DNA of 64,000 nucleotides from a virus (taxonomy: Duplodnaviria > Caudoviricetes), in IMG/VR virus record IMGVR_UViG_3300048998_000202. The stretch is one strand, 5' to 3'. The notes beneath the pieces were generated by a model. The model was not told the origin of the DNA, did not search any database, and worked only from the letters and a program-made list of their open reading frames with translations. This document shows, piece by piece, positions 11,686 to 59,791 of the stretch; position 1 is the stretch's first letter; every line of letters starts with the position of its first letter. The position numbers and the translations under genes were made by a program.

Positions 11686-12670
11686 TCCCTGTCCTGCTCG
11701 ATGTCGGCACGGGCGATCTCACGCGGGGCGGAGAGCATGGTCGACGTCTCCGGAGGATCGGGAGGACCCGTCAGGCCAGAGACCGTCACCGTGTTGTCGG
11801 CCAGCATCCGCTGGAGGATCTCCAGCTCGTCTTCGGCCGGAACTCCGAACTGCACGTCGCTGTAGTCCAGGTCGGTGTCTGCGTCATTGACGGCGGTCCC
11901 CTCAGGCACCTCTGAGGACGAGAAGTAGTCCCGGAAGACGATCTTCTCTTCGTACCCACCACTGGCGACGAGAGACCCTCGCACCACCGCGTCCAACAGC
12001 GCCGTATGCCGGGCTTCCCGCTGGCCCTGGCGCTGCATGGCGGCCAAACCGTCGGCGTAGGTGAGATAGGACAGCCCGAGTACGGCGACCTCCGAGAGGT
12101 TGTCGCCGGTCAGTAGCCCCCGGGCCTGAGCCAGTCTCAGATGTCGCTCGACGAAAGGTTCGAGTCCTCGGGGGCCGATGCTTTTCCCATGGCGTCAAGC
12201 ACCCTCATCGCCAGGTCCTCAAGGATCAGGTAGCGGTTGAAGACCACGTCGATGGTGGACGAGTACCAGTTGTCCTTGACGTAATCGAAGCGCTGGCGCC
12301 CCCATTCGTGGGCACGCTTGGTTTCGCCGATGGGTATCGGGAGATCGTCCCCGTCCACTCCCGTGATGCACATGCCGACCATGGCGTTGGCGTAGGCGCG
12401 GTCCGCACCCATCGTCTCGATGTAGGGCTTGATGATCGTGGCGACAGCCAGCTTCTCACCATCCCGCAGGGTCCGGATGTCGAAGGAGTGCCCGAGCCAG
12501 TCGAAGTTGTCCGCGAGCGCGCCCAGGTACAGCAGTCCCTTGAAGGGCTCCGCGTGCTTGGCGTCGAACGTCGGCAGAACGTTGCCCTCCGCATCACGGA
12601 GGGTGTCCGGTTCATCCTCCGAAGGGACCCCGAGTGTCGTCGGATCGTAGGACTTTGGTCCCGAATTCAT
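11676..12670 (-). CDS. Tail assembly chaperone, long form (G-T) made by -1 frameshift
   Basis: G-GGA-AAA at 12182-12188; the -1 frame reads KSIGPRGLEPFVERHLRLAQARG... continuously into the 11676..12047 ORF. Confidence 0.85.
12137..12670 (-). CDS. Tail assembly chaperone, short form (G)
   Basis: 177 aa, between tube and tape measure, slippery site near the 3' end. Confidence 0.85.
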   Translation of the reverse strand: MNSGPKSYDPTTLGVPSEDEPDTLRDAEGNVLPTFDAKHAEPFKGLLYLGALADNFDWLGHSFDIRTLRDGEKLAVATIIKPYIETMGADRAYANAMVGMCITGVDGDDLPIPIGETKRAHEWGRQRFDYVKDNWYSSTIDVVFNRYLILEDLAMRVLDAMGKASAPEDSNLSSSDI

Positions 12671-12705
12671 TTCACTCCCCGCATTTCCATGGTAACCATC
12701 CGCTT

Positions 12706-13179
12706 ATGACCAAGACTGCGAGCTCCTTCATCCGGGGGGACGACGAGGCCCGCTTCTGGTCCCACGTGGACCGGCGCGGCCCTGAGGAGTGCTGGCCCTG
12801 GACGGCGGGCACCGATCGGTGGGGATACGGCCAGTTCCGCGTGGAGGGACGTATCTGGCCCGCCCACCGCTGGGGCTACCACCACTTCGTCAAGCCCGTC
12901 CCGGACCATCTGACCATCGACCATGTAAAGGCATGGGGCTGCACCATAAGGCACTGCACCAACTTCCTGGCCCATATGGAAGTCGTCCCCGGCGACGTGA
13001 ATGTCATAAGGGGAAACGGCGTGTGCGCGATCAACGCGCGGAAGACGCACTGCAAACGCGGTCATCCGTTTTCCCCTTCCAACACCTTGATCCGCACCGA
13101 TGGGAGCCGGTACTGCCGTACCTGCAAATCCTTGCGTGAGCAGGGGCGCCTGGATCCCCTGCGCTTCGCCTCCTGCTGA
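12706..13179 (+). mobile_element. Free-standing HNH homing endonuclease
   Basis: RFWSHVD..ECWPW..GYGQF..AHRWGY..IDH..C.N..H plus KTHCKRGH and CRTC; opposite strand to its operon. Confidence 0.9.
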
Positions 13180-21970: not shown

Positions 21971-22040
21971 CTCTGCCTCCAGCAGTCGGCCCGGGAAGGG
22001 GTTCTCACCCCTTCTTCGGACTCAGGAGATCCAGGACATG

Positions 22041-22151
22041 GCTGAGGGCGCCACCCCGAAGGATGACGCCCTCCCCTGCCGCGCCGCGCCTCGCCCTGCC
22101 ATGCCGAGCCTAGCCGTGCCGTGCCGCGCCGTGCAAAACCTGACTCTATCA
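22041..22151 (-). ncRNA. Solo GGY-NN pentamer small-RNA cassette (11 units, 22076-22130)
   Basis: TGATAGAGTCA leader, then GGCGC GGCAC GGCAC GGCTA GGCTC GGCAT GGCAG GGCGA GGCGC GGCGC GGCAG, then a GAGGGCG/CGCCCTC hairpin. Confidence 0.8.
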
Positions 22152-24083: not shown

Positions 24084-24674
24084 TCAGGACGTGGGGGTCT
24101 GCGACCGCTCGGTCAGCATCTGCTGGAGACGGTTCAGGGCCTGCTCCTGCTTCTCGACCTTGTCCGCCAGTTCGGCAGTGGTCTCCTTGGTCTCCCGGCG
24201 GACGGCCTGGGTCTCCTTGCGGGCGGCCTTCAGCCCCTCCTCCAGCCGATCCTGCCGCCGCGACAGACGCCGGGTGATGTCCGAGACGGCCTGGAGAGCC
24301 CCGGCCTGAGCGTCGTACACCTGCCCCTGCTGCGGAGTCAGCTCGTTGCGGTCGGCCTTGGTCAGAAGATCTATGGCCGTACGGATCCGGCGGTTGGCCT
24401 TCTTGGTCTGGTACCGGGCCGCGCCCCCGTGCTCGGAGGCGTGCATGACGCGGTAGCCCACTTCCCGCTCGTTGGTCAGAGCCCGCTGGTGCTTGTCCAG
24501 CAGCTCCTTCTCCGCACGTCTCACCGGGCTGCGGTCGAGCCGGATGTTGATTCCGGCCCACTCCGAGAGCTCCTCGTACGTGACGACGGTGTCCGGATCG
24601 AGGTCGCGCAGACCCTCATAGATCAGGACCCAACGGGCGACGTCGCCCTTGGGCTCGAACGGCTTGGTGCCCAT
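24084..24674 (-). CDS. Accessory protein co-transcribed with the RAMP gene (possible winged-HTH plus coiled coil)
   Basis: 196 aa; VVTYEELSEWAG and REVGYRV segments; long charged coiled-coil C-terminus. Confidence 0.7.
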   Translation of the reverse strand: MGTKPFEPKGDVARWVLIYEGLRDLDPDTVVTYEELSEWAGINIRLDRSPVRRAEKELLDKHQRALTNEREVGYRVMHASEHGGAARYQTKKANRRIRTAIDLLTKADRNELTPQQGQVYDAQAGALQAVSDITRRLSRRQDRLEEGLKAARKETQAVRRETKETTAELADKVEKQEQALNRLQQMLTERSQTPTS

Positions 24675-24718: not shown

Positions 24719-25297
24719 TCAGCCCTGGATCTGGGTGACCTCGACGTCGAACCGCCCGAACCGGGGACGGTAGTCACCCAGTCCGATCATCTGGCCCGCC
24801 TTCTCGGCGATGCTGGTGATCTGGTCCAGGTCGAGCTGGCCGTCGTCCACGATCAGGTCGGCCTCCAGCGCCCACTGCGGGAACTTGGGCCGGGTGCGCA
24901 TGACGCGCGAGGTGGTGACCCCCACGGAGAGCCGGGAGACGAAGTTCTTGTCCTTCCACAGTCCCTCGACCGTACGGGATCCGCTGTAGCCCAGGGGGTG
25001 GATCTCGTTGACGACGACGACACCTCGCTCGACGGCCGGGCCCTGCCGGGTCATCTTGGCCGCCTTGATCAGGCAGGCGTGGATGTTGGCGCCGGGGATG
25101 TACGGACCGGTCTCCTCGTCGAAGTACAGGCCGCCCTCGAACTCGATGCGGGCCATCTCCTCGTGGTCGGACTCGGTCTTGATGCGCTTGCCGGAGACCT
25201 TTTTGAGCTGCTTGGTGATGGTCGCCAGCGGGTCGGACAGTTGCGCGTTGTGCATCAGCAGCGACGTGGTTCCGATGATGGTCAGGCGGACCTGCAT
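24719..25297 (-). CDS. Stand-alone Cas7/Csm3-like RAMP protein (Vipr-like RNA-binding effector)
   Basis: beta1 VRLTIIGTTSLLMH; GPYIPGANIHACL (cf. Csm3 PYIPGSSLKG); C-terminal G-loop IGLGDYRPRFGRF; ATG at 25297 after GGGAGA; adjacent to the pentamer array. Confidence 0.75.
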   Translation of the reverse strand: MQVRLTIIGTTSLLMHNAQLSDPLATITKQLKKVSGKRIKTESDHEEMARIEFEGGLYFDEETGPYIPGANIHACLIKAAKMTRQGPAVERGVVVVNEIHPLGYSGSRTVEGLWKDKNFVSRLSVGVTTSRVMRTRPKFPQWALEADLIVDDGQLDLDQITSIAEKAGQMIGLGDYRPRFGRFDVEVTQIQG

Positions 25298-25334: not shown

Positions 25335-25364
25335 AACATACTCCAAGGATTGTTGGAGTGTCAA
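25335..25364 (-). promoter_or_regulatory. Sigma70/HrdB-type promoter with a palindromic operator in the spacer
   Basis: TTGACA-CTCCAACAATCCTTGGAG-TATGTT. Confidence 0.75.
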
Positions 25365-25374
25365 CGGGGCAAAA

Positions 25375-25874
25375 CGAAGGGCCCGGGATCCGAAGATCCC
25401 GGGCCCTTCTCCATGCCTCGCCGTGTCGAGCCTTGCCATGCCGGGCCATGCCCGACCAAGCCGTGCCACGCAAGACTTGACTCTGTCAGTTCCACCACGA
25501 TCTGTCAAACGACGAAGGGGACCACCCGGAGGTGATCCCCTTCTCCCTGCCGTGCCTTACCCGGCCCTGCCTAGCCATGCCACACCGCACCACGCCCCGC
25601 AGGTCTTGACGTTATCAAGACCCTTCGGAGCCGTCAATGACGAAGGGGCCCTCCGTAGAGGACCCCTTCTCCTATGCCAAACCTAGCCATACCCTACCCT
25701 GCCACGCCAAACCTAGCCAAGCCATGCCCTGCAAGACTTGACTCTGTCAGCTCCTACGGCATCTGTCAACGACGGAGGGGCCCCACCGTAGTGGAGCCCC
25801 TCTCCCATGCCCGGCCTTACCCAGCCCTGCCTTGCCTCACCTCGGCCAGCCGTACCGAGACCTTGACTGTATCA
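25375..25874 (-). ncRNA. Array A: four GGY-NN pentamer small-RNA cassettes (10, 11, 10, 11 units)
   Basis: Pentamer tracts at 25807-25856, 25674-25728, 25547-25596 and 25413-25467, each with a TGAYAnnGTCAAG leader, TTGAC -35 (three of four) and a GC-rich terminator hairpin. Confidence 0.85.
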
Positions 25875-25877
25875 GGA

Positions 25878-30135: not shown

Positions 30136-30358
30136 GAGGGTCTCCGTTCGTGAAGGTCTTCTCGTCCTTTACGCGGAGTCGTCACGGGTCCAACAGGAAA
30201 GGCCCCGGCCCGGGGGTACCGGGGCCAGGGCCTTTCGTGGACGATCGGCGCCACGACTCAGGTCCGTGGGGGACGGAAGGAATCGGCGCCGCCTCGTGCA
30301 CGGGGAGCGTGGCACGGTGGGGTAGACGCTGTCAAGGCGAATGTGTTCCACTGGAGAG

Positions 30359-30598
30359 ATGGAAGATCAGCACACGATGCAGACAGACACCCCCACCGAC
30401 GACCTGAAGCTGTACGGGATCTCCGAGCTGGCGGATCGCTGGAAGGTCTCTAAGCAGCGGGCTGACGAGATCGCCTCCAAGCGCCTCCCACAGCCCCTCA
30501 CGCTCAAGATGGGCCGCATCTGGACAGAACTCCAGGTGGAGAACTTCGAGAGAGGGTGGGTCCGTAAGACGGGGCGTCACATCGTCCCCAGGACTTGA
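30359..30598 (+). CDS. Small HTH DNA-binding protein (AlpA/excisionase-like)
   Basis: LYGISELADRWKVSKQRA..LPQP..GRIW..QVE; start may be 30377; its stop codon overlaps the first cassette leader of array B. Confidence 0.75.
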   Translation: MEDQHTMQTDTPTDDLKLYGISELADRWKVSKQRADEIASKRLPQPLTLKMGRIWTELQVENFERGWVRKTGRHIVPRT

Positions 30599-31362
30599 TA
30601 TCGTCAGGGGTTACTGGGCTCGGCAGGGCTAGGTAGGGCAGGACTGGGCACGGCATGGGAGGGGCTTCCTACGGGGAGCCCCTCAGCCGTTGACAGGCGC
30701 TCTTGGGAGTGACAGAGTCAGGTCTTGCAGGACCACACGTGGGCGTGTGGAGAAGGGGCGCTTCTTCCAGGAGGCGCCCCTTCGTCGTTTGACAGACCGG
30801 CACGGGGGTGACAAAGTCAGGTCTTGCATGATGGGAAGGACACACGGTTGGTTTCTGAGGCCGGAACCGTGTGGATGCGATCGGCCCTCAAGGCCGTGGA
30901 CGCGTCCGAAGGCCCCCTCTGAAGATTCCTGGAGGGGGCCTTCGTTCGTTTGACCGGACGACATTAGGGCTGACAGGGTCAGTTCTTACAGGGCACCGTC
31001 TGGTTGGGCACGGTAAGGCATGGTGGGGTAAGGCACGGCTGGGCAGGGGAGGGCGACCATCTTCGGATGGTCGCCCTCAGCCGTTTGACAGGTGCGGGTG
31101 GAGCTGACAGAGTCAAGTCTTGCAGGGCCGGGCCCGGTAGGGCGTGGTTTGGCGTGGTGTGGTTGGGCAACGCATGGCATGGCATGGCAGGGGAAAGGCC
31201 CCAGGATTTTAAAATCCTGGGGCCTTTCGTTACGCCCTGAAGGAACTGATAGAGTCATGGTCTCGGCAGGCCGAGGCTAGGTAAGGCACGGCGGGGCAAG
31301 GCACCGCCCGGTAGGGCAAGGCATGGGGAAGGCCCCCTCGGATTCTCCCGAGGGGGCCTTCC
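30596..31362 (+). ncRNA. Array B: six promoter-terminator cassettes, four with GGY-NN tracts (8, 11, 13, 12 units) and two with non-pentamer hairpin cargo
   Basis: TTGAC...TGACAGAGTCAAGTCTTGC leaders; e.g. GGCCG GGCCC GGTAG GGCGT GGTTT GGCGT GGTGT GGTTG GGCAA; a hairpin follows each unit. Confidence 0.85.
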
Positions 31363-31387
31363 GTTGTCCTGAAGCGACTACTCTCCG

Positions 31388-32377
31388 TCACGCCTTGGTG
31401 ATCGTCGCGATGCCCCTGGGGTTCAAAATGGACATATTGACCATTTCGTCAAATACCCATCCCTTCCAGAAGGCTTCGACCATGTGGTTCTCTTCCACGT
31501 CCAAACTGTACAGAACGGGGAAAACGCCCAAGAAGTTGGGCTCCGGGGTGAGGAAGACCTTGCCCTGCGGGACGATGATCGACCGCTGGATCTGGAACTC
31601 GCCGAACGAGGTGATGGTCTCGCCCGCGACGACCCGGTCCTTGAAGGCCCAGCCCGTCTGGTTGATGTCCCACCGGTACAGGTCCCGGAAGTCGAACGGG
31701 TTGATCAGGATCCGCGCCGACTGGAGCTCGTGCATGTCCGTCATGGCGACGGCCGAGTACAGCGAGCCCGGCGTCAGGTAGCCCGACGCCTCGGTGATGT
31801 TGTGGTTCGGGGTGACCGTGTGGTCCGGGCGGGTGGCGTAGTCCGTCAGCGCCGCCTGGAGCAGTACGAGCAGCCGGGTGTCCTCCTGCTTGAGGATCGC
31901 CTGCTTGGTCTCGTCCTGGGCCTGCTCGACTGCGTTGATACGCAGGTAGAACAGGTCCTCCTTGCGGATCGCGGGGCGCGAGGCGATACGGAAGAACCGC
32001 ACCGGAACGCGCTTGCCCTCGAACGGAGTCACACGGACTTCGCCCTCGGTGCCGGACATGATGTACGCCTGGCCCAGGTCGTCCCACACGTCGTACTCGA
32101 CGGGGGTACCCGGGGTGACCGGGTCCTCCACGAGCACGTTGCGGGTGATGCCCTGGTAGCGGAGCTTGAGCTGGATGGGACCGACCATCCCGACGCCCAG
32201 ACGGCGGATGCCGCCGGTCTCGTCGGAGAGGATCAGCGCCATCTTCTTGACCTTCGCCTCATGCGTGAGAGGCGCGGCCTTCTCCCGGCGGGCGAGGATC
32301 GCGGAGGCGTAGTCGTCGGACTTCTTGGCCACACGGCCACGGAGCGACGAGGTTGCGGCGAGAGTCTGAGTCGGCAT
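31388..32377 (-). CDS. Major capsid protein
   Basis: 329 aa after the scaffold and decoration genes; PIQLKLRYQGITRNVL and FDEMVNMSILNPRGIA resemble actinobacterial myophage capsid proteins. Confidence 0.88.
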   Translation of the reverse strand: MPTQTLAATSSLRGRVAKKSDDYASAILARREKAAPLTHEAKVKKMALILSDETGGIRRLGVGMVGPIQLKLRYQGITRNVLVEDPVTPGTPVEYDVWDDLGQAYIMSGTEGEVRVTPFEGKRVPVRFFRIASRPAIRKEDLFYLRINAVEQAQDETKQAILKQEDTRLLVLLQAALTDYATRPDHTVTPNHNITEASGYLTPGSLYSAVAMTDMHELQSARILINPFDFRDLYRWDINQTGWAFKDRVVAGETITSFGEFQIQRSIIVPQGKVFLTPEPNFLGVFPVLYSLDVEENHMVEAFWKGWVFDEMVNMSILNPRGIATITKA

Positions 32378-34092: not shown

Positions 34093-37000
34093 TCAGACAG
34101 GCATCGGCAGCGGCGTTTCGCCCTGCTCTTCGGCGGGGCTCATGAGCTGCCCCTGACCACAGTTGGGGCAGACGTCGCCCGCCTGGACTCCGTCGGGGGT
34201 GGCCTCTCCCGTCGGCGGCAGGATCGAGGTGTCCATGTCGACGCTCACCGGGTTGGTGGCGTCGGCCTGGAATCCGCACGCCGGACATTCGAGGTCCGGT
34301 ACGCCATCGCCGGGGGTACCGGGGACTCCCTGGCCCGCGTCCGGGTTGGGGATCTGTCCGTCGGTGTCCAGGTCCTGAGGTCCGGCCGGGCCCTCGGGAC
34401 CTGTCGGCTGGCCGGGTCCCTGGGGCGTGTCGGGCCCTGGGGTGAACGGCTGGCCGTCACTGCTGACCGCGTCGGCCGGGAGGGCCTGCGGTCCGATCGG
34501 CATTCCGTCGGGTCCGACCATCATCTGCTGGCCGGGCTGCTGGAGCGGCTGTCCGTCGGGTCCGAGCATGGCCGGGTCGACTGGTGCCCCCAGCTCGTTC
34601 GGATCCTGCGGCTGGCCGTCCGGGCCGAGCGCGTTGGGATCCTGGGGCGAGTCTCCGCCCATCGGGTCGCCGCCCGGCTGTACCTCGGCCTGTACTTCAC
34701 CGGGGAGTGTGCCGGGCTGCTGACCCTGGTCCGCAGCGTCGGGGTTGACGGGGTTGCCGTTCTCGTCCAGGGCCGCCGGGTCGGCCGGGTTTTCGACCGG
34801 CTGTCCGTCAGGTCCGATCTGATTGGGGTTGGCCGGATCCTGGAACTCTGCGACGTCCTTCCGCAGGTCCATCTGTCGGGCCTTCTCCAGGTCGGGGTCC
34901 TGGAACATCTTGGGGGGTGCGACGTAGCTGCACACCTGGCAGGTGGCGCCGTCGAAGGTGTCGCGGTCACCGCACACCGGGCAGGCGTCCTCGCGCAGGG
35001 TGTCCACGTCCTCGGGGGCCTTCGTCTCGCCGTAGGCCAGTTTGCGGCCCAGCAGGCGACGAGAATCCTCGGGGGGAGTAGCCCCCCGGCCCGTCTGGAG
35101 ACCCTTGCCGTTCTCGGTGGCGAACGGGGAGTGCACCGGGGCTGGGTCGTAATGGGCCGCAGCGTGATCCAGCATGGCGGAGGCCACTCCTCGTCGCTTG
35201 AGGTTGTCGTCCACACCGATCCAGTTGATATGGCCAGCGGGCTTGACGTGCCAGGAGTCCGCGTGGCCATTCATGCCGCAGTGGTCGCAGTGCTGATCGG
35301 GCCGGAAGTCGTCAGGTCCCTTCTCGTCCCAGTACTCCTCGCGCTTCTTGGTCCACTCCAGCTTCCCGACCTGCTGCCTGTCGGGAGTGTGGGCGCGCAG
35401 CACGTGGTACTTGTAGTCCGGTCCACCGTGGTACGTGAAGTGCAGGCCCTCCGGCAGATCACCACTGGCCCCGGCCACATGGGAGTTCGCCGGGGGCTGG
35501 TGCAGGTCCGGATTGTGCTCGCGGCTGAGGTCCTGCCAGGTCTTGCGCTGGTTGCGCTGCACGGTGTTGCGGCCCTTCTGACCGCCTGAGGTGTCACCCT
35601 CGGCGTTCAGGCGCTGCCGGGCGAGCCAGGTGACGGCCTGCACCTCGTGCGGGGGCACTTCGCGGCCCTCACGGTCGGAGATGACCGCTGCGGCCTTGCG
35701 GTAGTGGTTGGCCACGACCTCGTAGTGCTTGCGGTTCTGCGAAGGGAAGCCCTTGACGTCGTCGGCGTTCAGACGGCGCCCGGCGGCGACGGACAGGGCA
35801 TGACGATCCACGACGACCTTGTCCGAAGGCTCCTTGGGCTTTCCTGCCGCCGCGTCCTCAGGGCTCTGGGGCTTGTTACCGCCGTGCTCGATCAGGGAGG
35901 CGAAGTCCTGCGTCTTGGGCCCCTTGAGGGCTTCCTGGTGGTTCATGCCGTCCATGACCTTCTGGGCGGCGTTGGCGTGACTGCCCATCACCATGATGCC
36001 CTCGCCCTTGCCGACGGCCCGCTGCTCGTGGAAGGCCCGCGCGGCGTTGTGCTGGTTGGCCCACCAGCCCTGCTGCGGGGAGTAGGCGGAGAGGACGCCT
36101 GCGCCCTTGTGGGCGGCTTCGGCGTCGCTCTTGATGCGGGGATCCAGTTTGGCGATGGACTTGGCCACCAGGTGGGCGTCGGGGTACCAGCGTTTGCCCT
36201 GCGCCTTCTCCTCGCTGGTGGCCTGGTCCCAGTGGTCCACGACGTGGTGGTGGGACAGGCCCATCTCCTTGAACCACGGATGGTCCTCGGGTGGCGTGGC
36301 CGCCGCACCCTCGGCCATCAGATCGGCCAGGGTGACGCGGGAGCCGGTGGCGGCAATCTGCCTCACCACGGAGTCCGGGATCTCCTCCGGAGTGGGGTAC
36401 GACTTCGAACGCGCCCTGTGGGTGGTGACGAAGTGGCCGTCACCGTCCTGCTTGAGACCGACCTCGGCGAAACGCGGGTCCTTCTTGGCGGCCTCGAACA
36501 TCCGGTCCTGGGCGTACCCGGAGCCCTCGGGAGTCTTCCCGGGGTCTTTGGCCTTGGGCGGCCAGTTGGTGGCGCGTGCCCCGTGATAGGGAGCCTTCTC
36601 GCCGTATTCATCCGGGGTGTCGGAGAGGGGGGACTTCGCCACGTAGGCGTGGATCTTCTTGATCCCTGCGGCCTTGGCCGCCTCGGTCCGGTGGTGGCCG
36701 TCGGCGACCTGGAAGACGCCGTGCCGGTGTACGAGGACGACCGGTGGCATCTGCTCGGGGTTGTCCCGGTACCCCTCGGCAGCGTGCTGGACGCGGTAGT
36801 CACCGGCCTCGTGGCGCTTGTGGTCGATGGCGCTCGGGCTGACCATCGCGTGATGGAAGGTCAGGTCATCGATCGAACGCTCGTTGGCGTCAGGGTCGTC
36901 GGGGGTGGAGTGGGCCAAGTTGCTGGCTGCCCATCCGATCATCTCCCCGTCGGCGTGCTCGGCCCGATCGCCGTGGATCTCGGGGTCCCCGTAGATCTCC

Positions 37001-37848
37001 GGGTGCCGCTCGCCTACCTCGTCCCAGGACAGGCCCCGCCCGGCAGTGGTGTTGATGGAGTCAAGACTTGCGGTACTCTGGATCTCGCTCGGCTCGGCTC
37101 GGATTGGCTTGGTTGGGCTTGGCACGGCAAGGTACGGCATGGCATGGGTGGCGGTCTCTCCGGAGGCCGCCACAGCCATTTTCATACCCCGGTCATCGAT
37201 CCCGGTGAAAAACGCCGTCGGATCCGCCGGGGGCTCCACCAGCAGCGAGTTCTCGAAAAACCGCAATCCGTAGCAGGTCTCACGGATGATCTCGCCGATC
37301 TTCTGCCCGGAAGCCGTCGTCCGGTAAAGCGTCATTCCCTTTGATCCAGGGATGTGGGCGCAGTATTCGGCAGGGGTAGTGGCCTTGTTGCCACAGGCGG
37401 AGCAGACGGAGAAGGCGACGTCGGTGCCCATGCTGGTTCTGGCGATGTTGCCGTTCATGATCTCGGCGGCCAGCTTGGGAAAGCGCAGCGCATCGACCTC
37501 TTGGAGGACCTCGACCCACCAGTCCCGGCTGCCGTCGCGGTTGCTGTCCTTGTGCAAAACCGCGTCGATGATCACACCACGGGCGCGCTTGTGATCTTCG
37601 TTCGCGTGATTGACGAAGACGGGCTTACCGATAAACGTCCGGTATCCCTTCTCCAGTTCCTCAGCGGGGAACTCGTCGAAGTTGTCGTTGCACCGGCTGG
37701 AGATGGCGCGGGAGCGCACGTACAGGTAGCCGGGGCGCACCTCATACGAAAAGTGGTGCCGGTGGGCGAAGCGGCGCAGCTCACGGGCACCCGCGTCCGT
37801 GGGGACGAGGGCCTTGGTCATGATCTGGGCGCTCGCGTACTTGAGCAT
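34093..37848 (-). CDS. Capsid maturation protease polyprotein (protease, ParB/Srx-like, glycosylase-like, GNAT-like and Zn-ribbon segments)
   Basis: NDNFDEFP..TFIGKPVFVNH..TSMG..FFENSLLVEPPADPTA; VADGHHR; WYPDAH..SAYSPQ..VVVDRHA..EVQAVTW; INWIGVD..KRRGVASAML; CPVC/CPAC. Confidence 0.8.
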   Translation of the reverse strand: MLKYASAQIMTKALVPTDAGARELRRFAHRHHFSYEVRPGYLYVRSRAISSRCNDNFDEFPAEELEKGYRTFIGKPVFVNHANEDHKRARGVIIDAVLHKDSNRDGSRDWWVEVLQEVDALRFPKLAAEIMNGNIARTSMGTDVAFSVCSACGNKATTPAEYCAHIPGSKGMTLYRTTASGQKIGEIIRETCYGLRFFENSLLVEPPADPTAFFTGIDDRGMKMAVAASGETATHAMPYLAVPSPTKPIRAEPSEIQSTASLDSINTTAGRGLSWDEVGERHPEIYGDPEIHGDRAEHADGEMIGWAASNLAHSTPDDPDANERSIDDLTFHHAMVSPSAIDHKRHEAGDYRVQHAAEGYRDNPEQMPPVVLVHRHGVFQVADGHHRTEAAKAAGIKKIHAYVAKSPLSDTPDEYGEKAPYHGARATNWPPKAKDPGKTPEGSGYAQDRMFEAAKKDPRFAEVGLKQDGDGHFVTTHRARSKSYPTPEEIPDSVVRQIAATGSRVTLADLMAEGAAATPPEDHPWFKEMGLSHHHVVDHWDQATSEEKAQGKRWYPDAHLVAKSIAKLDPRIKSDAEAAHKGAGVLSAYSPQQGWWANQHNAARAFHEQRAVGKGEGIMVMGSHANAAQKVMDGMNHQEALKGPKTQDFASLIEHGGNKPQSPEDAAAGKPKEPSDKVVVDRHALSVAAGRRLNADDVKGFPSQNRKHYEVVANHYRKAAAVISDREGREVPPHEVQAVTWLARQRLNAEGDTSGGQKGRNTVQRNQRKTWQDLSREHNPDLHQPPANSHVAGASGDLPEGLHFTYHGGPDYKYHVLRAHTPDRQQVGKLEWTKKREEYWDEKGPDDFRPDQHCDHCGMNGHADSWHVKPAGHINWIGVDDNLKRRGVASAMLDHAAAHYDPAPVHSPFATENGKGLQTGRGATPPEDSRRLLGRKLAYGETKAPEDVDTLREDACPVCGDRDTFDGATCQVCSYVAPPKMFQDPDLEKARQMDLRKDVAEFQDPANPNQIGPDGQPVENPADPAALDENGNPVNPDAADQGQQPGTLPGEVQAEVQPGGDPMGGDSPQDPNALGPDGQPQDPNELGAPVDPAMLGPDGQPLQQPGQQMMVGPDGMPIGPQALPADAVSSDGQPFTPGPDTPQGPGQPTGPEGPAGPQDLDTDGQIPNPDAGQGVPGTPGDGVPDLECPACGFQADATNPVSVDMDTSILPPTGEATPDGVQAGDVCPNCGQGQLMSPAEEQGETPLPMPV
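37053..37173 (+). ncRNA. GGY-NN pentamer cassette nested antisense in the protease gene
   Basis: TGATGGAGTCAAGACTTGC leader, 11 pentamers at 37091-37145, GTGGCGG/CCGCCAC hairpin. Confidence 0.75.
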
Positions 37849-47312: not shown

Positions 47313-48707
47313 TCAACCCACACGACCGCCGACGTTGGCGTGACGGACCACGGTATTACTGGCGCTGGCCGCGCTCCACTGCCACGTGATCACCAGATCG
47401 TTCGAAATCGTGGTGTTGAACGTTGACGTCGCCGTGGGAAAGATGATCTGGTTCGCCCCGATCGAGCCGACAACGGTCAGCGTCTGGTTCTGCCAGAAGG
47501 CATTCGTGCACGTGCCCGATCCCCCGGTCGTCAAGCATACGAAATCGGCCTCCGCGATCACGCCCTTGTTCGCCACGTTGGACGAAGTGACGGTCGGGCC
47601 CATCGTCGACAGAAGTGTCCCGGCGATTCCCCCCAGATACAGCCGCAGCGTGTAGGAGGGAGTACCCGTGACAGAACCCCGCAGCAACGTCCTCATGTGG
47701 TAGACGGCGCCTGCCGTCGCGTCGTTCGCAGGAATCGTCAACGTGGCCACCACCGTCTCCGTGATGGAGTTGCTGATGGTCTGCATCGACGCAGGAGACG
47801 GCACAGTGAACTGCCGGATCTGAGTGGCGAGGACCTTACTGTCCGTATCCAACGTGGCCACCCCGGAAGCGACCGCGAGCTGACTGGTGGGGACGGCATT
47901 GATATTCGCAGGAGTGACCGAAACAACGCCCTGCGACCCGTTGACCGACGTGACCCCAGCATGAACGTGATCACCCCGCGCCGCGCTGTTCGTCGCACCG
48001 GCCGCATTGGCCGACCCGATGGCCACGATGGTGCCGGTAGAGCTGTAGAGCTGCTGGGCGCCGTTGAGCTTGCTGGCGCCGTCCAGCCCCGGCACACCAC
48101 CCGAAGCGTTCTTCGAGGCGCTCGCAATATACAGAGTGGTCAGATCCGGAATCTGCGACAGAGGGATCTTGGTACTGCCGTCCAGAGAGGCGACGCCACT
48201 GGCCGCCGCCTTCTGGGTCACCGCCACGTACATACTGCTCAGGTCCGGAATCTGGGCAGTAGGCACCTTCGTGGAACCGTCCAGAGAGGCGACGCCGCTC
48301 GCTGCCGCCTTCTGGGTCGTCGCGATGTACGTCGCCGATAGATCCGGGATGCGGGCCGTGCCGAAGGTCCCCGAGGAGACCTGGGACGCCGGGAGGGGCG
48401 GCACCTGGGCCACGGGGACCAGCGTGCCGGAGTCCAGGGATGCCACCCCATTGGCCGCCGCCCGGGACGTCTTGGCGACATAAGTGGCATCGGTGAAGAT
48501 CTGGTCCACCGCGCCGACGGTGCTCGCGTCCAGTTCGACGTTCCCGATCAGTCCGTTGACGGAGGTGACGCCCTCTACGATCGTCGAAGGCAGCTCCGAG
48601 GACGGGATCTTCCCGTCCGATCCGAGACTGGCCACACCGCTCGCCGCACCGATCTGGGCGGAAGTAACGAAATCCGATGTGTCGTCCACCGTCAGGTGCT
48701 TAGGCAT
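47313..48707 (-). CDS. Fibre-like virion protein with GVASLD repeats
   Basis: About six AASGVASLDGSTK(V/I)P..QIPDL repeats. Confidence 0.7.
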   Translation of the reverse strand: MPKHLTVDDTSDFVTSAQIGAASGVASLGSDGKIPSSELPSTIVEGVTSVNGLIGNVELDASTVGAVDQIFTDATYVAKTSRAAANGVASLDSGTLVPVAQVPPLPASQVSSGTFGTARIPDLSATYIATTQKAAASGVASLDGSTKVPTAQIPDLSSMYVAVTQKAAASGVASLDGSTKIPLSQIPDLTTLYIASASKNASGGVPGLDGASKLNGAQQLYSSTGTIVAIGSANAAGATNSAARGDHVHAGVTSVNGSQGVVSVTPANINAVPTSQLAVASGVATLDTDSKVLATQIRQFTVPSPASMQTISNSITETVVATLTIPANDATAGAVYHMRTLLRGSVTGTPSYTLRLYLGGIAGTLLSTMGPTVTSSNVANKGVIAEADFVCLTTGGSGTCTNAFWQNQTLTVVGSIGANQIIFPTATSTFNTTISNDLVITWQWSAASASNTVVRHANVGGRVG

Positions 48708-58120: not shown

Positions 58121-59791
58121 ATGTCCAAGTTCAACGACGGCAAGGCCAAGGCGGCCGGGCCCAAGTCCCCGATGACCACGACCGGCACCGTCACCAATCA
58201 CGCGGGCGGTGACGCCCTCACCCGCGACGTGCGCTCGGAGCTGTTCCTGACGGCCGTGACCAACATGGTCGGTGAGGACACCTTCTACGAGTCCGCCAAG
58301 GACCGCGACGACCGCTTCAGCGCCCTGGTGCGCCAGGTGGCCGTCACCGACCCCGGGTGGCTGTACCTGTTCCTGGGCTGGCTGCGCAACAGCGCCAACA
58401 TGCGGTCGGCGTCGGTGGTCGTGGCGGCCGAGGCGATCAAGGCCCGTCTGGACGCGGGGATCACCTCCACCTTCCAGGTCCTGGACGTTGACCAGATGCA
58501 CACGATCGGCTCCAAGGACTTCATCGCGCAGGCCATGGCCCGTGCGGACGAGCCCGGCGAGTTCCTCGCGTACTGGACGTCCAAGTACGGCAGCGGCGGC
58601 CCCACCATGGGGCTGCCCAAGCCGGTCAAGCGCGGTCTGGCGCTGGCGGTGCAGAAGCTGTTCAACGAGTACACCTACGCCAAGTACGGGCAGGCCGACG
58701 GCGGTTTCGGGCTGGGCCGGATCGTGGATCTCGTCCACCCGGCTCCGAAGGCCCCGTGGCAGGGGGAGTTGTTCGAGCACGCCCTGGACGAGCTGCACAA
58801 GCGGGACAAGCCGATCCCGGAGCACCTGTACATGCTCCAGGAGCGGGCGAAGTTCCTGGCCATGCCGCAGGCGGAGCGCAAGGCGTTCCTGGAGCGTCCC
58901 GGGGCGAGTGAGGTGCTCTCCAAGGCGGGCATCACCTGGGAGGCGCTGTCGGGCTGGCTGGGCGGTGAGCTGGGTGCGAAGTTCTGGGAGAGCCTGATCC
59001 CGACCATGGGGTACATGGCACTGCTGCGGAACCTGCGCAACTTCGAGAAGGCCGGGATCTCCAGGAGCGCCCGCAAGGCGGTCCAGGAGCGGCTGAGCGA
59101 CCCGGCGCAGGTGGCCAGGTCCCGGCAGTTCCCCTTCCGGTTCCTGAGCGCGTACCGGGCCGTACAGAGCGACTGGTGGAGTGAGGCGCTGTCCGAGGCG
59201 CTGGACGCCTCCGTGGGCAACCTGCCGGAGTTCCGGGGCCGGACGCTGATCCTGGTGGACACCTCCGCTTCGATGCGGAACAAGATCAGCGAGAAGTCCT
59301 CGGTGTCGCACGCGGATATCGGTGCGCTGTTCGGTGTGGCACTGGCCAAGGCCGGGGCCGAGGTGGATCTGTACGGGTTCGCCGACGGCGTCTTCGGGCA
59401 CAACCTGGCGCAGGGCGGCTCGGTGCTACGGGGTATCGAGGCGTTCACCGACCGGATCGGCATCGTCGGCCACGGCACCGAGACCGTCAAGTCCCTCAAG
59501 CAGACCTACGACGGCCACGACCGGGTCGTCCTGGTCACCGACATGCAGGCGTTCGCGGACTACGGCCGCACCTCCTGGGGTGGCTATGCCATGGGCAACC
59601 GAGGGTCCAGCCCCACCGTCACCACCGCCGTTCCGGCCGGGATCCCGATGTACGGGATCAACCCGAGCGGGTACGCCTCCACGGCGCTGGACCTGTCCAT
59701 GCCCAACCGGTACGAGATCGGCGGGTTCTCCGACCAGGTATTCCGGATGATCTCTCTGATCGAGGCCGGGAACGCGGGCTGGCCCTTCTGA
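58121..59791 (+). CDS. rsr: Ro60/TROVE-domain RNA-binding protein (with vWA domain)
   Basis: EDTFYES, LR..ANMRS, MGYMALLRNLRNF, SRQFPFRFLSAY, LVDTSASM and VTDMQ motifs. Confidence 0.93.
   Translation: MSKFNDGKAKAAGPKSPMTTTGTVTNHAGGDALTRDVRSELFLTAVTNMVGEDTFYESAKDRDDRFSALVRQVAVTDPGWLYLFLGWLRNSANMRSASVVVAAEAIKARLDAGITSTFQVLDVDQMHTIGSKDFIAQAMARADEPGEFLAYWTSKYGSGGPTMGLPKPVKRGLALAVQKLFNEYTYAKYGQADGGFGLGRIVDLVHPAPKAPWQGELFEHALDELHKRDKPIPEHLYMLQERAKFLAMPQAERKAFLERPGASEVLSKAGITWEALSGWLGGELGAKFWESLIPTMGYMALLRNLRNFEKAGISRSARKAVQERLSDPAQVARSRQFPFRFLSAYRAVQSDWWSEALSEALDASVGNLPEFRGRTLILVDTSASMRNKISEKSSVSHADIGALFGVALAKAGAEVDLYGFADGVFGHNLAQGGSVLRGIEAFTDRIGIVGHGTETVKSLKQTYDGHDRVVLVTDMQAFADYGRTSWGGYAMGNRGSSPTVTTAVPAGIPMYGINPSGYASTALDLSMPNRYEIGGFSDQVFRMISLIEAGNAGWPF

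Follow-up and report, generated by a model that had tools for sequence, protein, structure and literature searches.

Between a gene for an 85-residue HTH-like protein and the convergent major capsid gene of a viral genome lies a series of six small cassettes, four of which carry 8-13 GGY/NN pentamers. These cassettes occupy 30596-31367 (+ strand) of a 64-kb window, by which we mean the whole 64,000-nucleotide stretch of IMG/VR virus record IMGVR_UViG_3300048998_000202 that was analyzed; coordinates refer to it unless another contig is named. We interpret the region, with high confidence, as an array of guide-RNA (vrRNA) genes of a VIPR system, a new example of a system that is already known.

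VIPR was described in bioRxiv preprints dated April to October 2026, mainly from phages of E. coli and Pseudomonas. Its components are a minimal RAMP protein (Vipr) with an RRM core, a glycine-rich loop, and a thumb; in most cases a single accessory gene (vap); and vrRNAs, in which 9-16 YNNGG repeats precede a 3' tail (10.64898/2026.04.26.720920). Pairing to double-stranded DNA is through the NN dinucleotides and passes over every third target base; the reported outcome is silencing of transcription and not cleavage, and the natural targets are competing phages and satellites (10.64898/2026.04.26.720920). Seven types have been distinguished, with the SUSP1 system, in which one vrRNA lies upstream and three lie downstream of vipr, assigned to type II (10.64898/2026.04.26.720920). 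The accessible portion of the structural preprint describes a helical filament with one Vipr protomer per repeat and periodic base flipping (10.64898/2026.04.26.720927), and that of a fourth preprint reports the recovery of VIPR arrays from a 5-nt entropy periodicity. Actinobacterial phages go unmentioned in the accessible text of three of the VIPR preprints, a text that does not include the type tables.

Cassettes and pentamers beside the capsid gene

The array and the two genes that bound it are organized as follows, with promoters, hairpins, and terminators being predictions.

30596-30689 (+): vrRNA cassette 1, with an extended -10 box (30596-30604), a tract of 8 units (30617-30656), and a tail of GGGAG plus hairpin
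30690-30788 (+): cassette 2, which has no tract; -35 TTGACA (30690-30695), extended -10 box (30710-30718), leader, and the GGAGAAGGGG hairpin tail
30789-30949 (+): cassette 3, which has no tract; vrRNA-type promoter, leader, and terminator, with a putatively structured body of ~120 nt
30950-31084 (+): vrRNA cassette 4, with a -35-like TTGACC, an extended -10 box (30971-30979), a tract (30992-31046) of 11 units, one of them degenerate, and a tail of GGGAG and hairpin
31085-31240 (+): vrRNA cassette 5, with -35 TTGACA, an extended -10 box (31105-31113), a tract of 13 units (31126-31190), and a hairpin tail
31241-31367 (+): vrRNA cassette 6, with an extended -10 box (31247-31255), a tract of 12 units (31265-31324), and a hairpin tail
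30341-30598 (+): HTH-like gene (85 aa) bounding the array, context only
31388-32377 (-): major capsid gene, convergent with the array, context only

The stop codons of the two bounding genes are 789 bp apart, and the six + strand cassettes fill this gap. All six follow one plan, in which an extended -10-like box (TGAYA..GT) precedes a short leader and the cassette closes with a GC-rich hairpin and a short pyrimidine-rich run. In four of the six, TTGACA or TTGACC is located ~17 nt upstream of the -10 box, immediately 3' of the preceding hairpin. The leader/-10 motif TGAYAGAGTCA.GTYTTGCA (up to 3 mismatches) occurs eight times against 0.03 expected, every time at a cassette; four of these occurrences fall in the capsid-side array, where cassettes 1 and 6 have variant -10 boxes. 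The terminal hairpin is predicted in 6/6 cassettes with 11-16 pairs and a sequence that varies between them, and a GG(G)AG(A)-type junction stands 3' of all ten pentamer tracts in the window. No pseudoknot was found in the cassette tails, and MAFFT/RNAalifold applied to the ten tails left the stems unaligned and called no covariation. The TGA stop of the HTH-like gene doubles as the TG(A) of the cassette 1 extended -10 box (30596-30604), and the same overlap of stop and -10 box is present in a second phage (L001, about 1625-1640, - strand).

A six-unit GGYNN pattern with no more than one mismatch matched the window 71 times, compared with an average of 0.07, and never more than 2, in dinucleotide-preserving shuffles. 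The 71 matches group into ten tracts, divided equally between the strands: those at 22.1 kb and 25.4-25.9 kb are on the - strand, and those at 30.6-31.3 kb and 37.1 kb on the + strand. An eleventh tract-finder match, at 59387, had only 6/10 units and was dropped as chance. Across the 114 units of the ten tracts, the frequencies at positions 1-3 are 0.96 (G), 0.96 (G), and 0.98 (Y), values that are partly circular because the tract finder selects for GGY; the fourth position is A-rich (0.53) and the fifth is flat. Compared pairwise, the ten tracts agree in register at 5 of 12 NN units at most. An earlier note, made from the letters of the sequence, had listed the NN strings of the four capsid-side tracts and described a second array ~5 kb from a first one, on the opposite strand and convergent with the capsid gene, with a common leader, pentamer, and terminator grammar and with no two of the ten tracts alike despite a preserved GGY. 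The strings proved exact, and each part of that description was borne out.

The two cassettes without pentamers, which the earlier note does not mention, can be compared with L048, the closest relative that has the region. A 20-nt hairpin alone takes up the tract position of cassette 2, where L048 has an intact 8-unit vrRNA of the same guide family as the window tract 25547-25596; cassette 2 is therefore probably a decayed vrRNA gene. The first 26 bases of cassette 3 occur in a single IMG/VR contig, the one behind L048. The L048 copy differs by a 1-nt indel and an 18-nt deletion that alter the reading frame, and one stem pair is changed on both sides with pairing kept. This compensatory change, together with the frame-shifting indel, argues for a structured RNA rather than a peptide as the product of cassette 3. 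In G001 (IMGVR_UViG_3300044691_000566, a relative whose 159.7-kb genome is complete and has terminal repeats), matches to cassettes 2 and 3 are limited to the promoter and terminator parts.

The whole window gave no Rfam match at the gathering score, the array searched by itself at E≤1 gave sub-threshold noise and nothing else, and ARAGORN found no tRNA in the window. By blastn, the array DNA matched the phage collection in its capsid-gene portion only. A tandem repeat elsewhere in the window (48140-48347, 99 bp in 2.1 copies, 77% matches) lies within the coding region of the open reading frame (ORF) 47313-48707 (-).

The window is part of a phage genome of 63-71% GC (66% as a single figure), and the major capsid protein is ~60% identical to its counterparts in the Mycobacterium phage Myrna and in phages of the Bxz1-like cluster C. 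The source is in all likelihood a Bxz1/Myrna-like actinophage of roughly 155 kb that carries a VIPR system. Because relatives lacking vipr, such as G007, also have the HTH-like gene, that gene is outside the VIPR system.

The Vipr homologue, its operon, and known systems

The remaining VIPR-related features of the window are listed below.

24719-25297 (-): vipr, encoding a RAMP protein of 192 aa, directly downstream of the first array; the guides would load onto its product
24084-24674 (-): candidate accessory gene (vap; 196 aa), the next gene downstream of vipr
25335-25364 (-): putative sigma-70-type promoter before vipr, TTGACA-18-TATGTT
25365-25875 (-): first array, upstream of vipr and made up of four vrRNA cassettes, whose tracts are at 25807-25856, 25674-25728, 25547-25596, and 25413-25467
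22028-22151 (-): solitary vrRNA cassette behind a gene for a 587-aa protein, with its tract within 22066-22140
37053-37170 (+): solitary vrRNA cassette with a promoter-like box, a tract of 11 units (37091-37145), and a hairpin

The vipr product aligns over its full length (residues 4-188) with the Protein Data Bank entry 36pp, "SUSP1 Vipr protein" (phmmer, E 3.7e-35), with 34.9% identity by tblastn. It belongs to PHROG 4652, has no Pfam match, and is the sole Vipr homologue in the window, 5.3 kb from the capsid-side array. The structural preprint, in its accessible part, assigns contacts with G1, G2, Y3, or the target backbone to the SUSP1 residues H17, K33, R138, D177, W178, and R179 (10.64898/2026.04.26.720927). 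In the alignment with 36pp these correspond to H16, K32, R136, D175, Y176, and R177 of the window protein, so that five of the six are identical and the sixth is a W-to-Y change. The pyrimidine-pocket residues E71 and M72 of SUSP1 are not kept (A70 and N71 in the window), and a glycine-rich GLGD(Y/W)RPRFG segment is invariant in 7/7 aligned Vipr homologues. An AF2 model built from seven homologues reached a pLDDT of 84.1, and its best Foldseek matches were Csm3/Cas7 chains (E 1.5e-5, probability 1.0, TM about 0.45); as modeled, the window Vipr has a RAMP fold.

Vipr homologues number 131 records in the phage collection, the closest being from Gordonia and Mycobacterium phages at 48-54% identity: MakoManhole (54%) and Trine (49.5%) from Gordonia and LittleE (47.9%) from Mycobacterium. 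The candidate vap gene, which has no Pfam match, is homologous to the gene after vipr in LittleE (E 3e-13) and in MakoManhole (E 1e-6), where it is annotated as a "DNA binding protein"; the vipr genes of these two loci (L040 and L041, respectively) are annotated "hypothetical protein". Both phages also have GGC-rich pentamer tracts on either side of vipr. Unlike those of the window, the LittleE and MakoManhole tracts are grouped around vipr itself, and they have different tails. A T-loop-like hairpin (GGTTCGA) occurs 3' of tracts in LittleE, L006, and L007. ARAGORN, run on six vipr loci, made a single doubtful call, a "tRNA-Ser" that overlaps a tract in L007, and none in the other five.

The window thus shares with SUSP1 a full-length Vipr homologue with the GG-contact residues kept, RNAs of GGY/NN pentamers, and a two-gene operon (vipr and a second gene) flanked by vrRNA genes. 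At the SUSP1 locus our tract finder detected three tracts, one upstream and two downstream of vipr. In contrast to the four vrRNA genes at one SUSP1 locus, the window has ten within 15 kb, at four places and on both strands, each apparently with its own promoter, and the host genome is that of a 66% GC actinophage. The vrRNA genes away from vipr (22.1 kb, 30.6-31.4 kb, and 37.1 kb) resemble the solo vrRNAs of satellites and of phages that lack vipr; unlike them, they are found in a genome that keeps vipr, and vipr-less relatives of the lineage have no tracts. The solitary cassette at 37053-37170 is antisense within a 1251-aa frame (34093-37848, - strand) that is open throughout, and is placed between the protease-like N-terminal part and the remainder of the protein, with PHROG matches on both sides. 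The G001 tract examined as a possible counterpart, at about 90.3 kb, is intergenic.

Class 1 CRISPR systems, in which Cas7/Csm3 assembles on crRNA, offer a further comparison: the RAMP fold is common to both, as is, in the accessible description of published Vipr, a filament on the guide RNA. The differences are a 5-nt period of which only 2 bases are read and a published outcome of double-stranded DNA silencing. Tandem Repeats Finder detected no 55-80-nt period in the window that would mark a CRISPR-type repeat-spacer array, whose direct repeats are about 25-40 nt long.

A nuclease gene matched by one guide

We scanned sequence collections for exact targets of three of the ten window guides. 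For the guide of cassette 6 (31265-31324), the pattern comprised its first 11 NN dinucleotides with one free base between them, following the published 1-nt-skip rule. It matched 16 viral contigs, in every one of them in frame within an ORF of 116-280 codons and at the peptide SDYKTGKTPR; the twelfth NN also matches in ten of the contigs. The three target ORFs tested all matched Pfam PDDEXK_1 (E about 1e-32), with a weaker match to Cas4. As these ORFs encode PD-(D/E)xK nucleases, we take the matched codons to include the (D/E)xK active-site motif of that family. Against contig G002, 24/24 bases of the guide match at a skip of 1 and 16 at skips of 0, 2, or 3, with shuffled guides reaching at most 19. 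The pattern was absent from 596 Gb of prokaryote genomes.

Since the skipped base falls on codon wobble positions, the guide would effectively read a conserved peptide. The accessible text of a further preprint describes the same coincidence of skipped bases with the wobble positions of active-site codons, for example in a satellite recombinase target (10.64898/2026.10.15.759431). The window guide resembles published VIPR guides in matching a coding target at an enzyme active site, wobble-aligned and with a 1-nt skip. An orthologue of the guide in relative L050 differs at 3/12 units, each time by an AA-AG exchange equivalent to a Lys-Arg codon change, which is what the tracking of a protein-coding target would look like.

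When all ten window guides were compared with 875 kb of sequence, including the vipr loci of relatives, only this guide scored above shuffles. No self-target of the guides in the window exceeded shuffles, the 17 guides of G001 had no match in contigs G002 and G003, and G001 encodes no homologue of the targeted nuclease at E≤0.01. In G002 the targeted gene (12271-13071, L032) lies ~1.2 kb downstream of the large terminase gene, and its neighbors include RuvC-like, ParB-like, and PAPS-reductase-like genes.

Relatives and the weight of the alternatives

A capsid-based search retrieved 271 related IMG/VR viral contigs, and the best 80 of these loci were examined. G001 encodes a single vipr, 71% identical to that of the window, and its HTH and capsid genes enclose a syntenic array with five vrRNA cassettes. 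At least 17 tracts are spread over its 56-149 kb region, at eight or more places and on both strands, some more than 50 kb from vipr. With one vipr each in the window and in G001 and tracts scattered in both, the guides must act in trans. An HNH-like ORF stands between the vrRNA array and the capsid gene of G001 (L001, about 500-1040, - strand reading), and the window lacks it.

Presence of tracts follows vipr. Six complete relatives were compared. Both of those with vipr match the six-unit pattern many times (120 in G001 at up to one mismatch; 30 in G008 at 0 mismatches), and the four without vipr (G007, G009, G010, and G011) have no match; control patterns read backwards gave 0-3. This co-occurrence is the strongest non-experimental support for guides that work with Vipr. 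The best 80 of the 271 loci contained 56 capsid-side tracts, which are distributed over 21 loci and in every case lie opposite in strand to the capsid gene.

The slot between the HTH and capsid genes was counted in the 12 relatives' loci in which both flanking genes are present.

0 tracts: 8/12 loci, with a gap of 94-143 bp in seven and 1164 bp in one
1 tract: 2/12 loci, with gaps of 170 and 1465 bp
3 tracts: 1/12 loci, with a gap of 502 bp
5 tracts: 1/12 loci (G001), with a gap of 1192 bp

Slot content differs even among loci whose capsid protein is 97-99% identical to that of the window. Of the ten window guides, a single one is represented by an orthologue in G001 (7/9 NN units); the other nine share 3-4 units, which is the level of shuffles. 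One guide family is found in the vipr-side array of both the window and G001 and in the capsid-side array of L048. The earlier note had held that the NN positions carry selected information rather than the traces of slippage, and that the guides would serve the single RAMP gene in trans. Both views gained support: GGY, kept at 96-98%, did not vary as freely among relatives as the nearly all different NN content, one guide spells a nuclease active-site motif, and the window's lone Vipr homologue together with the co-occurrence of vipr and tracts is consistent with action in trans.

We envisage each cassette as a self-contained minigene in which a promoter with an extended -10 box and, in most cases, a -35 TTGACA would drive a leader, 8-13 pentamers, and a GC-rich hairpin that may serve both as 3' tail and as terminator. 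By analogy with the SUSP1 complex, Vipr protomers would polymerize along the transcript, one per repeat, burying each GGY and presenting each NN. Through these dinucleotides the complex would pair with double-stranded DNA, leaving every third base unread, and so silence the transcription of the gene it binds. The guide at 31265-31324 would in this way read, in other phages, the active-site (D/E)xK motif of an exonuclease resembling Cas4, and the matched phages would be real rivals.

Several observations weigh against this interpretation. The array tracts have 8, 11, 13, and 12 units compared with the published 9-16, which leaves the first one unit short. The tails are plain GC-rich hairpins of variable sequence, unlike the conserved pseudoknot tail of SUSP1, and the candidate vap product is not detectably similar (BLASTP) to the product of the SUSP1 gene at that position. 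Between 30300 and 31500, a generic E. coli-type promoter scan predicted no promoters, and a terminator scan predicted only one terminator, with a U-run. The actinobacterial -10 consensus is TAnnnT, and promoters in the array were assigned from this consensus and the recurring -10/leader motif. Two of the three guides scanned (31126-31190 and 30992-31046) had no exact 1-nt-skip match in viral contigs; since these two patterns matched nothing, chance matches at a pattern length of 22 bases appear to be rare. The target contigs are myovirus fragments of 40-44% GC, and neither G002 nor G003 shares a detectable protein with the 64-kb window, so they may not be same-host rivals of a 66% GC phage. 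A version of the pattern with G or C at four wobble positions was absent from metagenome contigs, and the Cas4 exonucleases of cultured actinophages match the guide at only 17-18 of 24 bases.

Other explanations fare less well. Some or all of the RNAs could be decoys that capture or redirect the Vipr of a competing phage instead of guiding their own. The accessible text of 10.64898/2026.10.15.759431 reports that E. coli satellites and vipr-less phages have solo vrRNAs by which the Vipr of another element is redirected, and the distance of the cassettes from vipr and the small number of guides with an identified target fit such a role. We nonetheless consider it very unlikely, as the phage has an intact vipr-vap operon with its own promoter, none of the four vipr-less genomes of the lineage has tracts, and one guide has an ordinary coding-gene target. 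A protein sponge unrelated to Vipr, in which the spaced GGY triplets would wrap a host RNA-binding protein that forms a ring or filament, as with TRAP or CsrA/CsrB, was our initial reading and was dropped on the VIPR literature and the match of the Vipr protein. TRAP binds triplets spaced by two bases, a grammar that resembles the tracts, and Rfam has no family for these RNAs. A sponge would have no need of variable NN information, however, nor does it account for tracts that follow vipr in 6/6 genomes or for a guide that matches a foreign gene at 24/24 read bases, and we judge it highly improbable.

The tracts could also be untranscribed DNA devoid of information, either a slippage-prone microsatellite or (G2N3)n quadruplex DNA, and Tandem Repeats Finder does detect period-5 G-rich repeats. 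Yet the units are not copies of each other and are near-random at position 5, each tract stands between a recurring promoter-like motif and a hairpin, and a lack of information would fit neither the single orientation of 56/56 capsid-side tracts in 21 relatives nor the target match of guide 31265-31324; there is hardly any chance that this account is correct. Small leaderless peptides have a negligible probability. Short frames are open through some tracts and cassette 3 starts with ATG ATG, but a 5-nt period cannot preserve a reading frame, and the L048 copy of cassette 3 shifts the frame while its two-sided stem change keeps the pairing.

Within the preferred reading of the region as an array of vrRNA genes, a more far-reaching proposal is possible but doubtful. 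The vrRNA genes of this lineage may be autonomous mobile minigenes that are gained, lost, decayed, and moved between hot spots, even antisense into an ORF, supplying a single Vipr with a fast-turnover repertoire of 10-20 guides. This proposal draws on the slot turnover, the guide family that switches arrays, the cassette inside an open frame, and the conserved cassette 3 with its compensatory pair; neither a means of movement nor a signature of target sites came to light, and no search aimed at either was made. On this view, the repeat-less RNA of cassette 3 might represent a novel VIPR-associated RNA, perhaps a regulator or an anti-decoy.

Together, these findings place VIPR as an accessory module in an abundant lineage of ~155-kb actinophages, represented in IMG/VR by 271 related capsid loci. 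The locus displays dispersed guide genes, apparently individually promoted, with a very simple tail. Gain, loss, and decay of guides are visible between close relatives, and one guide appears directed against the active-site motif of a nuclease. As LittleE, Trine, and MakoManhole are in culture, with their vipr genes still annotated as hypothetical, the biology of the system is testable in Mycobacterium smegmatis or Gordonia.

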